Positions 51,143-56,151 of a stretch of 64,000 nt of DNA are shown here, one piece after another. Position 1 is the stretch's first letter. Each line of letters begins with the position of its first letter. A program made the position numbers and the translations under genes. Source of the DNA: an uncultured Lachnospiraceae bacterium (lineage in GTDB: Bacteria > Bacillota > Clostridia > Lachnospirales > Lachnospiraceae); NCBI GenBank assembly GCA_944381515.1, contig CALWLM010000118.1:37137-101136 (forward strand), in the 5' to 3' direction. The notes under the pieces are model-generated. The model ran no database searches and was not told the DNA's origin. It was given only the letters and a program-made list of their open reading frames with translations.

Positions 51143-52033
51143 TTATTTCGTATTGGAAGATCTGTGCGCGTCCTTTACGGCAATGTCGATATAGTCGCCT
51201 ACGGCATGGATGTAGGGGAATACCAGATGAAGAGTACCGTCCTGCCAGTAGGTGCAGCCCACAGCGGAAGGGTTCTTGCCGTCAAAGTCCATCTGATTAA
51301 AAAGCTCCGCCAGGGCGGCCTCGTCTGATTTGGCGGCCCGGTTGGGGATGAATTCCTCGTACATATCAAGGAGGCCTTCCATGGTGATGTGACGGGTCAC
51401 ATCGGTGCCGTCCGGAGCGGCTACGGTGTAGGCGGTCTGAGCCTCGCCGTCCGCCGCAGCCTTATCGGCGGCAATCAGATCGGCAGCGATGGAATTGGTG
51501 CTGCAAAGCTGATGCAGGCGAAGGCTGTCGCCGGTGGAAGGATCGATATTGTAGGAGGTCAGAGTGACGGTAGGATAGGCAGCATCCTGAACCGTGGTCT
51601 CCGTGATTTTTACAAGGCTTGCCAGACGGGAGGTCTGGGAGCTCAAGCGCCAGCTGACGGTAACGGTGTCTCCCTCGGAGAGTCCTTCCGCCGTGCTGGC
51701 GGCGTCCTGCCGGAAATAGTCGTTCCAGCGCGTCACATCCGACTCACTGCGCAGCCCTGTCAGCTGGGGATAGCTGATGTCGGAGCCTTCCGGCGCTTCG
51801 TAGCTTACCAGAGAGACGGCAAATTTCGGTTCGGAGGCAGTGGTCTCGGAGGCGGTAGTCTCCGGCGCTGCCGTCGCAGGCTCCTGCGTGGGCGCCTCGG
51901 TGGACGGGGCCTGGGTCGTGGAAGGCTGGGTGATGACAACAGGCTCATCGGCTGCACAGGAGCAGGCCGACAGGACCAGTGCGCACGTAATAGACAATAC
52001 AGTAAAGGCGATTCCCTTTTTCATCTTTTGCAT
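51143..52033 (-). CDS. lipoprotein, DUF4163/DUF3298-like flavour
   Basis: Lipobox LSAC, a Thr/Pro/Ala-rich linker, then a ~230-aa domain. The start is ambiguous between MQKMKK and MKK. Confidence 0.45.
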   Translation of the reverse strand: MQKMKKGIAFTVLSITCALVLSACSCAADEPVVITQPSTTQAPSTEAPTQEPATAAPETTASETTASEPKFAVSLVSYEAPEGSDISYPQLTGLRSESDVTRWNDYFRQDAASTAEGLSEGDTVTVSWRLSSQTSRLASLVKITETTVQDAAYPTVTLTSYNIDPSTGDSLRLHQLCSTNSIAADLIAADKAAADGEAQTAYTVAAPDGTDVTRHITMEGLLDMYEEFIPNRAAKSDEAALAELFNQMDFDGKNPSAVGCTYWQDGTLHLVFPYIHAVGDYIDIAVKDAHRSSNTK

Positions 52034-52135
52034 CCTTTCTGCTGCGCCAGCTTTGCAACCGGCTGCGCAGCGGCAGTTTTCATACATAGTAACGTCCGCG
52101 CCGGCGGATATATTTATGTGATGCCTTATGAGACG

Positions 52136-52164
52136 ATTATAAGCGGGGACCGCCGATATTGCAA
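52136..52164 (-). promoter_or_regulatory. sigma-A promoter for the lipoprotein gene (TTGCAA-17-TATAAT)
   Basis: Near-consensus hexamers with exact 17-bp spacing on the minus strand. Confidence 0.5.
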
Positions 52165-52206
52165 CGAAAGTAAGAAATTTGTAATCAATTTTGTCCCGGG
52201 GAGCGG

Positions 52207-53160
52207 TTAGTAGCCTTCCTTCAGCAAATCCTGGTAGACAGATCGGGAAATTTCAAACTGAGGGGAGCCCATGGAGCCGGGAGCGATCTCATATTCGTCG
52301 AACTGGATTACCAGGTTGCCGTCCTCGGAGAAGAAGAAATTCTGGTCCGGAGTGATGGAGTGAAAATCCATGCCCTCATATTCGGTGTCGATCCAGTAAG
52401 TTATATTGTCGTCCTTTGCCATCTGTTCCTTCATCTGGCGAAGAATTTCATCACTGATGACAGTCTGATAATCGCTTCCCTCCAGGAAAAGGTCAGACAG
52501 CTGTACGATCTGGCCGCTCTGCTTGTCAATATGATAATAGTAGTAGGTCTGCGTGCCGCTGCCGGAACCGTAGTAAACCAGAATCTGCAAGGTGAACCAG
52601 GCGTCGTTGTTGGTAACGACCTGATAGGAGACGGACAGTTCTGTGTGGCCGGAGTCGCCAAGCGCGGCCCGATCGGCCTCAAACTCTGCGATCAGCCGGT
52701 CAGTCATGGCCTGCACATCGGCGTTGATGGCATCTACGGAATCGCCCAGAGAGCTGTTCTCGCTTTCCGTCTCCAGCTCCACCTGAGGCACGTCCACGCT
52801 GGAGCGGTGGTAGCCGTCATCGTAAAAATAGTTGCGAATGGTGATGACCTCCACAATGGCGCCGATGACTGGCAGCTCGCTCATGGTCTCAGCGGCCGAC
52901 GCGCTGATATTGGGAAGCAGAAAAAAGAGGGCGAGTACAGCGGCGGCAGCAGCGGCCGGCCGGGGCAAACGGGGTTTCCTCCGGGAGGAGGACAGCTTGC
53001 GTGCCGCAGGAAATGGCCCTGGCTCTTCCGCCTCATCGGAGGAGCCGGGCGTGCTTGGCAGACGCCTTAAGGTGCGCCGGATGCACTCCTCTGTCTCCGG
53101 AGGAAGCGTAAGTCTTTCCTTCCGTGCCAGACTGCGTATTTGTTTGTCGATAGGGTTCAT
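52207..53160 (-). CDS. anti-sigma factor, RsiV-like (cytoplasmic N-domain, one TM, extracellular DUF4163/DUF3298-like domain)
   Basis: N-terminal ~35-aa anti-sigma segment, TM AAAAAVLALFFLLPNISA, and a ~220-aa extracellular domain. The start is 12 nt after the sigma gene stop. Confidence 0.55.
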   Translation of the reverse strand: MNPIDKQIRSLARKERLTLPPETEECIRRTLRRLPSTPGSSDEAEEPGPFPAARKLSSSRRKPRLPRPAAAAAAVLALFFLLPNISASAAETMSELPVIGAIVEVITIRNYFYDDGYHRSSVDVPQVELETESENSSLGDSVDAINADVQAMTDRLIAEFEADRAALGDSGHTELSVSYQVVTNNDAWFTLQILVYYGSGSGTQTYYYYHIDKQSGQIVQLSDLFLEGSDYQTVISDEILRQMKEQMAKDDNITYWIDTEYEGMDFHSITPDQNFFFSEDGNLVIQFDEYEIAPGSMGSPQFEISRSVYQDLLKEGY

Positions 53161-54646: not shown

Positions 54647-54658
54647 GTCTGTCTCCTC

Positions 54659-56053
54659 TCAAAAACGGAAATACATAAAGGGATCGTTCAGGCCCTGATG
54701 CAGAAGATAGACAGAGAGCCAGAATACAGCTGCCAACCCCACGGTTACAAGCAGACTGCGGCCATATTTCTGATAGAGCTTCCTGGGCAGGGGCGTGCAG
54801 AAAAGGAAGCAGACGATCAGCATGACGCCGTAGGTCTTGCCGTATTTGATATAGTCCTGAGCATATACATACTGCGCTTCGCCCCCCAGGAAAGGGAAAA
54901 GCCGTCCCAGATAAACCCCGATCTGCGACAGATCGGAGATGGCAAATACCAGCCAGGAGAGGGGAATTGCAAACAGCATGTATAAATGGCCCAGCAATGG
55001 AATCCTTTCCAGGATTTTCTTAAGCCCCAGTCTTTCGATGGACAAAAGGACGAAGAGCAGCAGTCCCCACAGGACGAAATTCCAGCTGGCGCCGTGCCAG
55101 AGTCCGGTAAAGAGCCAGACCACCAGCATATTGCGGTAGGTGCGAAGCTTGCCTTCACGGCTTCCGCCCAGAGGAATGTAGATGTAGTCACGAAACCACT
55201 GTCCCAGGCTCATATGCCACCGTCTCCAGAAATCCGTCATGGACAGGGACATGTAGGGATAGCGGAAGTTCTGAGGCAGGTGCAGGCCCATCATCAGACC
55301 AAGTCCGCGGGCCATCAGGGAGTAGGAGTAAAAATCCAGATAAAGCTGCATACTGAAGGCTGCAATGCCCATCCAGGCCAGGGGAGTGGAGATGCTTTCA
55401 TAACCGATGGCCGTTACGTCGTTCCAGAGATTGCCGATCTGGTTGGCCAGTATAACCTTCATGCCCAGACCGATGCAGAATTCCCGCAGGCCGCAGTCGA
55501 AGAGACGGGGCGAGTGGGTGCGCTTCTTCAGAGAAGTCTCCACCTGATCGTAGGTGGTAATGGGGCCGGATATGATCTGCGGGTACATGGACATATAGGT
55601 GGCCACCCTGCCCACCGCATGGGTATCGTAGCTGGCGCCCCGGTATACATCAGCCAGATAGGAGACCACCTGGAAGGTAAAGAAGCTGATTCCGGGAGGC
55701 AGCGCCGGGTGAATATCCGGCAGATCTATGGACAGGAGCTGCTCCAGAGTGTCGCAGAAGAAGCCCAGGTATTTAAACAGGAAGAGCAGACCGAAGTCGT
55801 ATGCAATTCCCACAATCAGCCACAGCTTTTTTTGCTCTGGGTTTGCCTGAATTTTCTGAGCAAGCACAATATTGATTATCATGGACAAAAGCAGCAGAAA
55901 AAAGTACAAGGGCTGATCCTTCGTCCCGATGGCATAAAAAATCAGACTGCCGCCCAGCAAAATAGTATTGCGGTATTTCTCCGGTGTCAAAAAGTAGACG
56001 ATAAAATACAGCGGCATAAAACCAAATAAAAACGGAAGACTGCTGAAAACCAT
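54659..56053 (-). CDS. MBOAT-family membrane O-acyltransferase (PatA/AlgI-like)
   Basis: ...FFTFQVVSYLADVYRG... and a conserved His region. Start at the ATG at 56053 (MVFSSLPFLFG) after AGAGAGGA. Confidence 0.8.
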   Translation of the reverse strand: MVFSSLPFLFGFMPLYFIVYFLTPEKYRNTILLGGSLIFYAIGTKDQPLYFFLLLLSMIINIVLAQKIQANPEQKKLWLIVGIAYDFGLLFLFKYLGFFCDTLEQLLSIDLPDIHPALPPGISFFTFQVVSYLADVYRGASYDTHAVGRVATYMSMYPQIISGPITTYDQVETSLKKRTHSPRLFDCGLREFCIGLGMKVILANQIGNLWNDVTAIGYESISTPLAWMGIAAFSMQLYLDFYSYSLMARGLGLMMGLHLPQNFRYPYMSLSMTDFWRRWHMSLGQWFRDYIYIPLGGSREGKLRTYRNMLVVWLFTGLWHGASWNFVLWGLLLFVLLSIERLGLKKILERIPLLGHLYMLFAIPLSWLVFAISDLSQIGVYLGRLFPFLGGEAQYVYAQDYIKYGKTYGVMLIVCFLFCTPLPRKLYQKYGRSLLVTVGLAAVFWLSVYLLHQGLNDPFMYFRF

Positions 56054-56125
56054 GGATGTTCCTCTCTTGTCGTTTATTGTCATATAAGCGCGAACGAACG
56101 CGTTTTGTGCGATGGTATATATAAG

Positions 56126-56151
56126 ACGGAATGGCGGCGGAAAAGGTTACG
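56126..56151 (-). promoter_or_regulatory. candidate ECF-sigma-type promoter (GTAAC-N16-CGTC) upstream of the MBOAT-SGNH-sigma-antisigma operon
   Basis: The minus strand reads cGTAACc - 16 nt - CGTC, ~65 nt upstream of the MBOAT ATG. It resembles the Bacillus ECF (sigX/W/M/V) AAC...CGTC architecture. Confidence 0.35.

Follow-up and report, generated by a model that had tools for sequence, protein, structure and literature searches.

To our knowledge, no bacterial receptor system for lysozyme is well defined apart from the sigma factor sigma-V and its anti-sigma factor RsiV. The effectors known for it are OatA, PdaV/PgdA and Dlt. In Bacillus subtilis the operon has the composition sigV-rsiV-oatA(-yrhK), and in C. 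difficile a clostridial sigma-V/RsiV module, csfV-rsiV-pdaV, controls wall modification against lysozyme, with sigma-V-dependent dlt as a second arm. Here we analyze a stretch of 64,000 nucleotides (64 kb; hereafter, the window) from an uncultured Lachnospiraceae bacterium (GenBank assembly GCA_944381515.1, contig CALWLM010000118.1, positions 37,137 to 101,136), the minus strand of which encodes, in order, an MBOAT acyltransferase, a membrane-anchored SGNH/GDSL protein, an extracytoplasmic function (ECF) sigma factor and an RsiV-type anti-sigma factor. We consider it probable that this cassette, at 52207..56152, is a self-contained, positively autoregulated operon of the sigma-V/RsiV type whose first two genes specify a two-protein extracytoplasmic O-acyltransferase of the PatAB type. 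The parts are known; what is new is the arrangement, in which a sigma-V/RsiV lysozyme sensor is coupled to a PatAB-type effector. Searches for RsiV, sigV or ECF30 together with MBOAT or PatA/PatB found no description of such a cassette in the literature, our coverage of which was incomplete.

As in the B. subtilis sigV operon, the ECF sigma gene is followed immediately on its 3′ side by the gene for an RsiV anti-sigma factor, the ectodomain of this protein is homologous to the RsiV crystal structure (5JEN) next to a cleavage and amphipathic region that appears to be kept, the autoregulatory promoter is of the AACnTTTT...CGTC type, and a wall O-acyltransferase, here a predicted one, belongs to the same operon. 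There are also differences. The B. subtilis effector is OatA, a fusion of AT3 and SGNH domains, whereas here it consists of two proteins, MBOAT and SGNH; the effector genes lie upstream of the sigma gene, so that the promoter precedes the effector; most copies of the cassette have GT(C/A)AC instead of TGAAAC as their -35 box; and Tyr261 (Y261) of B. subtilis RsiV is not conserved. In the C. difficile module, the effector is a peptidoglycan N-deacetylase, while no deacetylase is present here, and, unlike C. difficile dlt, the Dlt-like genes of our window have no detectable sigma-V-type promoter ahead of them.

The effector pair itself invites comparison with three other systems. Like PatA of the Neisseria and Campylobacter peptidoglycan O-acetyltransferase PatA/PatB, the MBOAT has an invariant His and a C-terminal FxYxxF shuttle and is accompanied by no carrier protein (PMC12148441). 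Like PatB, its SGNH partner is a separate protein with an N-terminal transmembrane anchor, a linker (dispensable in PatB) and a Ser-His-Asp triad (PMC12148441). In PatA, the Tyr of this acyl-shuttle is auto-acetylated from acetyl-CoA and the acetyl group is then given to PatB, and in the Dlt system the FxYxxF motif is carried on the microprotein DltX (PMC12148441). Unlike the Neisseria and Campylobacter systems, the host here is Gram-positive, no ape1 esterase is present, the SGNH partner has the canonical block II Gly, and transcription is predicted to be under sigma-V/RsiV. The PatA1/PatB1 proteins of B. cereus and B. anthracis, which O-acetylate the secondary cell wall polysaccharide, are likewise a Gram-positive MBOAT and SGNH pair acting outside the membrane, although they differ in regulation and have that polysaccharide as acceptor. 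Finally, DltB is the solved structure to which the MBOAT aligns best, and the logic of an acyl-Tyr shuttle is shared with DltB/DltD/DltX; in contrast to the Dlt system, neither an adenylase nor a carrier accompanies the cassette and the shuttle is fused to the MBOAT instead of residing on DltX.

Gene content and conservation of the cassette

The initial annotation described a run of genes on one strand, in the order MBOAT, membrane-anchored SGNH/GDSL protein, ECF sigma factor, RsiV-like anti-sigma factor and lipoprotein. The open reading frame (ORF) list and family scans with Pfam and NCBIfam agree: all five genes are co-directional on the minus strand and stand in that order. The first four are tightly packed, with gaps of 12, 17 and 11 nt, while 182 nt precede the lipoprotein gene and 222 nt precede the next gene, which encodes a multidomain protein that we call the chimera.

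Four details of the initial annotation required correction, two of which are gene boundaries within the cassette. The MBOAT gene (54659..56053) most likely encodes 464 amino acids, not the 474 first reported from the longer ORF (56083..54659), because its homologues align from the Met at ATG 56053, a ribosome-binding site (GAGAGGA) precedes this codon, and the sister species has ACG in place of ATG 56083. Gene callers also begin the MBOAT at ATG 56053. The SGNH/GDSL gene (53678..54646, 322 amino acids) had been thought to overlap the start of the sigma gene by 19 nt. However, an in-frame TGA at 53669..53667 leaves no room for an upstream extension of the sigma ORF, so that the overlap does not exist; the sigma ATG at 53660 instead lies 17 nt past the GDSL stop codon (53680..53678). 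The sigma gene (53172..53660) encodes a protein of 162 amino acids comprising regions 2 and 4 only, and the anti-sigma gene (52207..53160) a protein of 317 amino acids.

We recovered 80 loci from one-genome-per-species collections by alignment of RsiV homologues. Upstream of rsiV, 70 of them offered 3.5 kb of DNA or more and were counted as assessable. In 41 of these 70 species loci the four genes MBOAT-SGNH-sigma-RsiV are arranged as in the window, in order as well as in orientation; these loci belong to Lachnospiraceae, Oscillospiraceae, Ruminococcaceae, Christensenellaceae, Acutalibacteraceae and other families. So far as the record titles name a source, most carriers come from gut, rumen or faecal samples. 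The flanks are unrelated from locus to locus (aconitase, peptidases, NrdR and transporters are among them), and the genes 3′ of rsiV in other genomes are unrelated housekeeping genes. In 22 of 42 cassettes the first 160 nt past rsiV contain a terminator-like hairpin; none was found over that distance in the window. When loci were sampled from the SGNH side, two of the three homologues lay within the same cassette and one did not. The four-gene cassette is a self-contained unit that is found in unrelated contexts.

A few loci depart from the common layout. In L038 (8565..10870) and L039 (8726..10912), SGNH-sigma-RsiV lacks an MBOAT gene directly upstream, where a MatE or SNF transporter gene is found, and a sigma-V-type promoter stands directly ahead of the SGNH gene. 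In L053 (9405..13962), a variant sigma-V operon, sigma-RsiV is followed by the gene for a DUF4358 + DHHW protein and then by an MBOAT gene, so that a different MBOAT pairing stands downstream of rsiV; here a sigma-V-type motif stands ahead of the sigma gene.

The promoter of the cassette

A sigma-V-type (ECF30-like) promoter is predicted on the minus strand at 56121..56152, with the -35 box GTAAC at 56150..56146, the T-tract TTTT at 56144..56141 and the -10 box CGTC at 56128..56125. Transcription is predicted to start near 56118, which would give a 5′ untranslated region of about 65 nt to the ATG at 56053. A GTAAC...CGTC motif upstream of the MBOAT gene had been noted in the initial annotation; it is present at 56150..56125, although as a 26-nt match its spacer is 17 nt and not 16.

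Among the 41 other-species loci, 38 have the motif tGT(C/A)ACcTTTT-N12-CGTCTATA 50–80 nt ahead of the MBOAT start, the form in the window being CCGTAACCTTTT-N12-CGTCTTAT, and in about 50 loci the conserved promoter precedes the first gene of the operon. Comparable sites are rare across the 1.43 Mb of loci, where the motif precedes whichever of the MBOAT, SGNH and sigma genes comes first in the operon; ahead of the sigma gene itself, it often has the form TGAAACtTTTT...CGTCTAA. In the sister species, which we designate L087, a diverged spacer separates two unchanged boxes.

We also scanned the window with a promoter weight matrix built from other genomes, leaving out the window's own species. 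The promoter of the cassette is the top-scoring site in the 64 kb (18.3) and lies exactly at the expected place; in shuffled controls, the maximum per 64 kb had a mean of 12.6 and a standard deviation of 2.7. The second-best site, at 34072..34104 on the plus strand (TGAAACATTTT-N13-CGTC, score 15.0), lies inside a pepF-like ORF (M3 oligoendopeptidase, 33879..35663), is within the null range and is probably a chance match, so it was not accepted as a member of the regulon. An earlier regular-expression search for AAC-N-CGT upstream of MBOAT genes gave almost no matches, because the -35 box of the family is GTCAC; the motif was found by reading the raw upstream sequences. No leader or riboswitch was detected by an Rfam scan of 42–57 kb.

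In B. subtilis, sigma-V promoters follow the rule AACnTTTT...CGTC, in which a T-tract adjoins the AAC of the -35 box and the -10 box reads CGTC (PMC5758882). The GTAACcTTTT-N12-CGTC promoter of the window fits this rule in all three elements. Its footprint in about 40 genomes and its agreement with the sigma-V T-tract rule make autoregulation of the MBOAT-SGNH-sigma-antisigma unit, as first suggested from the position of the motif, a well-supported prediction.

The sigma factor and its RsiV-type partner

The anti-sigma factor matches the NCBIfam RsiV model (E 5.5e-70, 236 bits against an equivalog cut-off of 250), the crystal structure of B. subtilis RsiV over residues 87–313 (PDB 5JEN, E 4.1e-29) and Pfam DUF3298 (4.6e-24), with a weak match to Pfam DUF4179 (22.7 bits; cut-off 30.1). 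It is organized as a cytoplasmic N terminus, a transmembrane helix at about residues 62–84 and a DUF4163/DUF3298 ectodomain. A signal-peptidase-type site, A90-E-T92|M93, which corresponds to A-Q-A|M in B. subtilis RsiV, is followed by an amphipathic segment, M93..I108, and the hydrophobic residues M67, I73, I76 and I80 of the protective amphipathic segment of B. subtilis RsiV are kept as M93, I99, I102 and I106. We further mapped residues of RsiV that have been studied experimentally (PMC5014341; PMC6066255) onto the 5JEN alignment. Ser201, the equivalent of S169, is invariant among 28 aligned homologues, and Pro294, the equivalent of P259, is conserved; the position of Y261 is occupied by Ser296 and is variable in this clade. 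Judged by these alignments, the anti-sigma factor is clearly of the RsiV type, and its ectodomain resembles that of RsiV as the initial annotation had surmised.

The sigma factor contains Pfam Sigma70_r2 and r4_2 and scores 87.8 bits with the NCBIfam sigma70-ECF model, above the cut-off of 42.9. With the specific NCBIfam models it stays under the cut-off in each case: 94.8 bits for SigV (cut-off 190), 113 for TIGR02954 (188) and 118 for TIGR02983 (141), which is the best of them. Classification with hidden Markov models, proposed at the outset for both proteins, thus places the anti-sigma ectodomain with RsiV, while the sigma factor passes the generic ECF model only. By these matches it is a genuine ECF factor whose membership in SigV/ECF30 cannot be assigned from its own sequence; its assignment to the sigma-V type comes from its partner and its promoter. 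In the recovered loci, the sigma gene is always directly upstream of the RsiV homologue.

The MBOAT and SGNH proteins

The MBOAT matches the Pfam MBOAT family (3.4e-26) and aligns to the DltB structures 6BUG and 8JEM at 6e-23 over a region that spans both His motifs. Both motif residues are conserved, His280 in RWHMS and His320 in LWHGA, the latter aligning with the His of the DltB WHG motif. The C terminus, FMYFRF (residues 459–464, with F459, Y461 and F464), is an FxYxxF acyl-shuttle, and F[LM]Y[FY]xF forms the final six residues of all 42 cassette MBOATs. Against the DltB equivalog model TIGR04091, the protein scores 135.5 bits (cut-off 375).

The SGNH protein has a transmembrane helix at residues 5–26, a disordered linker rich in T, E, A and P at about 30–125 and an SGNH domain at 128–320. 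Its FIGDSRT and DDTHPY motifs, both reported in the initial annotation, are present, and the domain matches Pfam Lipase_GDSL_2 (1.7e-15). Ser142 (block I), Gly163 (block II), Asn203 (block III) and Asp295/His298 (block V) are all invariant in 35 homologues. In an AlphaFold2 model, the predicted local distance difference test score (pLDDT) is above 95 across the domain, and the linker is of low confidence. A PDB search gave no detectable match of the SGNH protein to PatB1 at E below 1.

How might these two proteins work? Probably as PatAB does, with an MBOAT of the acyl-CoA type that carries a fused shuttle and a tethered SGNH transferase, the acyl group and the acceptor being presumed. The original description of a PatAB-like pair therefore holds in the sense of functional type, given the FxYxxF shuttle, the His motifs and a membrane-anchored SGNH protein with an invariant triad. 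"OatA-like," the label given alongside it, is wrong as a family name, as Pfam finds no Acyl_transf_3 (AT3) domain in either the MBOAT or the SGNH protein. The SGNH protein is not a PatB orthologue, as it keeps the canonical block II Gly; PatB orthologues are marked by a block II with Ser or Asn in that place and by two beta-hairpin wings. The pair is not DltBD, given the MBOAT score of 135 against the DltB cut-off of 375 and the lack of a carrier system with the cassette; neither carrier nor adenylase genes were found in the cassettes of the 41 other species.

The neighboring lipoprotein and Dlt-like operon

Downstream of rsiV lies the lipoprotein gene (51143..52024, minus strand). The initial annotation was right about its existence and its place, and the product has a lipobox, LSAC (Cys21); within the ORF 52087..51143 the start is placed at 52024 (MKKG...), giving 293 amino acids. 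Next on the same strand comes the Dlt-like operon (43045..50920), in which family assignment identifies the chimera (50920..47576), a DltA-like adenylase (47448..45922), a DltC-like carrier (45919..45689), a second MBOAT, MBOAT2 (45686..44097), and a second SGNH protein, SGNH2 (44085..43045).

Two sigma-A-like promoters had been proposed on the minus strand in this region, and both are present and conserved in the sister species. TTGCAA-N17-TATAAT (52136..52164; 10/12 in a consensus scan) stands ahead of the lipoprotein gene, forms a conserved block in L087 and also precedes the lipoprotein homologue in a more distant relative, L091 (Logan SRR34592903, 1..10861). TTGTCA-N17-TACACT (50954..50982; 9/12, with TG before the -10 box) stands ahead of the chimera gene and lies in a block that is fully conserved in L087, while the hairpin region preceding it has diverged. 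That region, 3′ of the lipoprotein gene at 51035..51107, folds as RNA into a long hairpin with a U-rich tail (UGUUCGAUUCAAUUAAUUUUUU) and is a probable intrinsic terminator. At the same position in L087 (about 12100..12135) there is a non-homologous GC-rich hairpin followed by GUUUGUUUUCU (z = -3.3), so that the position of the terminator after the lipoprotein gene is kept in both species and its sequence is not. A simple terminator scan called no minus-strand element in either intergenic region, and it took folding to reveal the hairpin past the lipoprotein gene.

Does the cassette then feed into the Dlt-like operon, as the initial annotation held when it described a consolidated island? A weight-matrix scan of the 64-kb window revealed no second sigma-V-type site before the lipoprotein, chimera or DltA-like gene. 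The full 13-kb arrangement is shared only by contigs of the same species and by L087, whose RsiV is 81% identical. In L091, a lipoprotein homologue (43% identical) heads a chimera-DltA-DltC-MBOAT operon, ending 21 nt before the chimera gene. Sigma and RsiV genes neither adjoin this lipoprotein gene nor lie between the operon and an orthologue of the cassette's SGNH protein (58% identical), which is about 4.3 kb upstream and is split from the operon by opposite-strand genes for a phosphoglucosamine-mutase-like and a NAGPA-domain protein. Because the lipoprotein leads the Dlt-like operon in L091 without adjoining sigma/RsiV, it most likely belongs with that operon and not with the sigma-V cassette. 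As no terminator was found between rsiV and the lipoprotein gene, read-through from one into the other is possible; read-through past the hairpin that follows the lipoprotein gene is doubtful. On sequence grounds, the cassette and the Dlt-like unit are neighbors in this lineage rather than a single regulon. Of the island first proposed, possible read-through from rsiV into the lipoprotein gene is what stands; the lack of a second sigma-V site, the downstream genes' own sigma-A-like promoters, the hairpin and the layout in L091 argue against the rest.

The lipoprotein itself has no Pfam match, although 22 of 35 members of its family match PF13739 (PdaC). The family profile aligns with 3CYG at 2e-7 and with RsiV 5JEN at 4e-3, hhalign relates the lipoprotein and RsiV families with 92.6% probability, and the AlphaFold2 model has a pLDDT of 85. 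BLASTP between the lipoprotein and RsiV gave nothing, the relation being visible only by profile and fold comparison. By that comparison, the lipoprotein has in common with 3CYG the RsiV-ectodomain fold of two subdomains (DUF4163/PdaC-N plus DUF3298), so that the block contains genes for two proteins of this fold. The idea that the lipoprotein is a lysozyme decoy or inhibitor was downgraded. The residue aligned with S169 of RsiV is Tyr150, reminiscent of the binding-defective S169W, so that RsiV-like binding of lysozyme is not proposed for it, and the lipoprotein of L091 sits in a Dlt-like operon.

Several features of the surrounding genes deserve mention. MBOAT2 ends in FIYNQF (residues 524–529), an FxYxxF shuttle, yet is paired with DltA-like and DltC-like genes; by its motifs and gene content, this set mixes Dlt logic (a carrier protein) with PatA logic (a fused shuttle and no DltX). 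The adenylase scores 271 bits against the DltA equivalog cut-off of 560 but clears the generic model for amino-acid adenylation, and its substrate may thus be an amino acid other than D-alanine. The chimera (1114 amino acids) combines a pyridoxal-phosphate-dependent domain of the Orn/DAP/Arg-decarboxylase type, a low-complexity region with a transmembrane segment, Rib/Ig-like repeats and a transglutaminase-core domain, and is conserved in L087 and L091, where it also leads the Dlt-like genes. On the other side of the cassette, the divergent region 56160..56290 (plus strand) has a sigma-A-like promoter, TTGCAA-N17-TATATT (56233..56261), for rmlA-rmlB-glmM-like genes and is nearly identical in L087.

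Discussion

Starting from the gene identities, the conserved operon and promoter, the shuttle motif and the catalytic residues, we propose the following mechanism for the cassette. RsiV would retain the ECF sigma factor at the membrane. Binding of lysozyme to the RsiV ectodomain would open the A90-E-T92|M93 site to signal peptidase, and intramembrane proteolysis would then release the sigma factor. Once freed, it would transcribe from GTAACcTTTT-N12-CGTC, yielding MBOAT, SGNH and further sigma and RsiV. His320 of the MBOAT would transfer an acyl group, acetyl from acetyl-CoA being the likeliest, to Tyr461 of FMYFRF at the outer face of the membrane, where the tethered SGNH protein would accept it on Ser142 and pass it to a wall glycan. 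Our best guess for the acceptor is O-6 of the N-acetylmuramic acid of peptidoglycan, a modification that would block lysozyme. The lipoprotein and the chimera/Dlt-like genes would form a neighboring unit on sigma-A-like promoters, which read-through from rsiV would enter at most as far as the lipoprotein gene. In this scheme we infer that the signal is lysozyme, that the group is acetyl and that the acceptor is peptidoglycan.

Several observations weigh against it. The sigma factor falls under the cut-off of every specific NCBIfam model, and SigV is not its best match. The RsiV score is 14 bits short of the equivalog cut-off, one of the three mapped lysozyme-contact residues differs (Y261, which is Ser296 here), and Thr takes the place of Ala at position -1 of the cleavage site. 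On the effector side, the SGNH protein gives a generic fold match, in which structures other than PatB and OatA-C are the closest, and its block II keeps the canonical Gly that in PatB is replaced by Ser or Asn. Moreover, MBOAT-SGNH pairs of this family are also found without sigma/RsiV (L091 and L095), and both the acceptor polymer and the acyl group are reached by inference.

It is possible, although unlikely, that the regulatory module is as we describe and that the acceptor is another one. The pair would then acylate a secondary wall polymer, for example capsule, teichoic acid or a secondary cell wall polysaccharide, in the manner of the B. cereus and B. anthracis PatA1/B1 proteins, and would protect indirectly, through charge or access, or regulate autolysins. 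The Gram-positive pairs of MBOAT and SGNH proteins that have been characterized use secondary wall polysaccharide, cellulose or teichoic acid as acceptors, with peptidoglycan O-acetylation ascribed to OatA (PMC12148441), the SGNH domain bears no specific likeness to PatB or OatA, and in both the window and L087 the cassette is adjoined by rhamnose-nucleotide and phosphoglucosamine-mutase genes. Across the 41 cassette loci, however, the flanks are not conserved, so no partner in polymer synthesis travels with the cassette; the one partner that is conserved is a sensor of the lysozyme type, and what lysozyme attacks directly is peptidoglycan. An improbable alternative concerns the signal: the RsiV-like sensor might answer another ligand, such as a different wall-active protein or a wall fragment, which would make the cassette a general envelope-stress module. 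The lack of conservation at Y261, a score below the RsiV equivalog cut-off and the wide distribution of DUF3298/DUF4163 proteins, most of them without a known function, are compatible with this idea. On the other hand, the equivalent of S169 is invariant and that of P259 is conserved, the entire ectodomain together with the cleavage and amphipathic segment aligns to B. subtilis RsiV, and the carriers derive, per record titles, mostly from gut, rumen and faecal samples. Habitats of this kind contain lysozyme.

Could the whole 13-kb block nevertheless be a single lysozyme and envelope-stress island? Sigma-V transcripts would in that case run through the lipoprotein gene into the Dlt-like operon, and both systems would be lysozyme-inducible. 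We find this rather unlikely. In its favor, no hairpin of the kind that 22 of 42 other cassettes have in the first 160 nt past rsiV was found in the window, L087 shares the block, the SGNH orthologue of L091 is again within about 4.3 kb of a lipoprotein-chimera-Dlt-like operon, and sigma-V activates PdltA in B. subtilis (PMC5758882). Nevertheless, the window contains no second sigma-V-type site, both species have a U-tailed hairpin past the lipoprotein gene, conserved sigma-A-like promoters precede the lipoprotein and chimera genes, these neighbors are absent from all 41 cassettes of other species, and L091 has the Dlt-like operon without adjoining sigma/RsiV. More speculative still, and in our opinion very improbable as a whole, is a broader scenario in which gut and rumen Clostridia make lysozyme-inducible O-acetylated peptidoglycan by a PatAB-type pair, without OatA, and in which sigma-V transcripts in this lineage also reach the lipoprotein; this second RsiV-fold protein would be a surface lysozyme- or wall-binding factor and would link the cassette to the Dlt-like aminoacylation operon with its unusual PLP-decarboxylase/transglutaminase protein.

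The autoregulated four-gene operon is the reading that we favor. In dozens of mostly uncultured, host-associated Clostridia, the same sensor is tied, inside a single autoregulated operon, to an effector that is non-homologous to those described for sigma-V/RsiV. The conserved promoter, GT(C/A)ACcTTTT-N12-CGTCTA, could be used to map sigma-V regulons in the genomes that bear the cassette. Gram-positive peptidoglycan O-acetylation has been attributed to OatA alone (PMC12148441); if the acceptor is peptidoglycan, the cassette would represent a Gram-positive route of PatAB-type O-acetylation that operates without OatA. As predicted from its genes, it may be a compact candidate for the means by which gut commensals tolerate host lysozyme.

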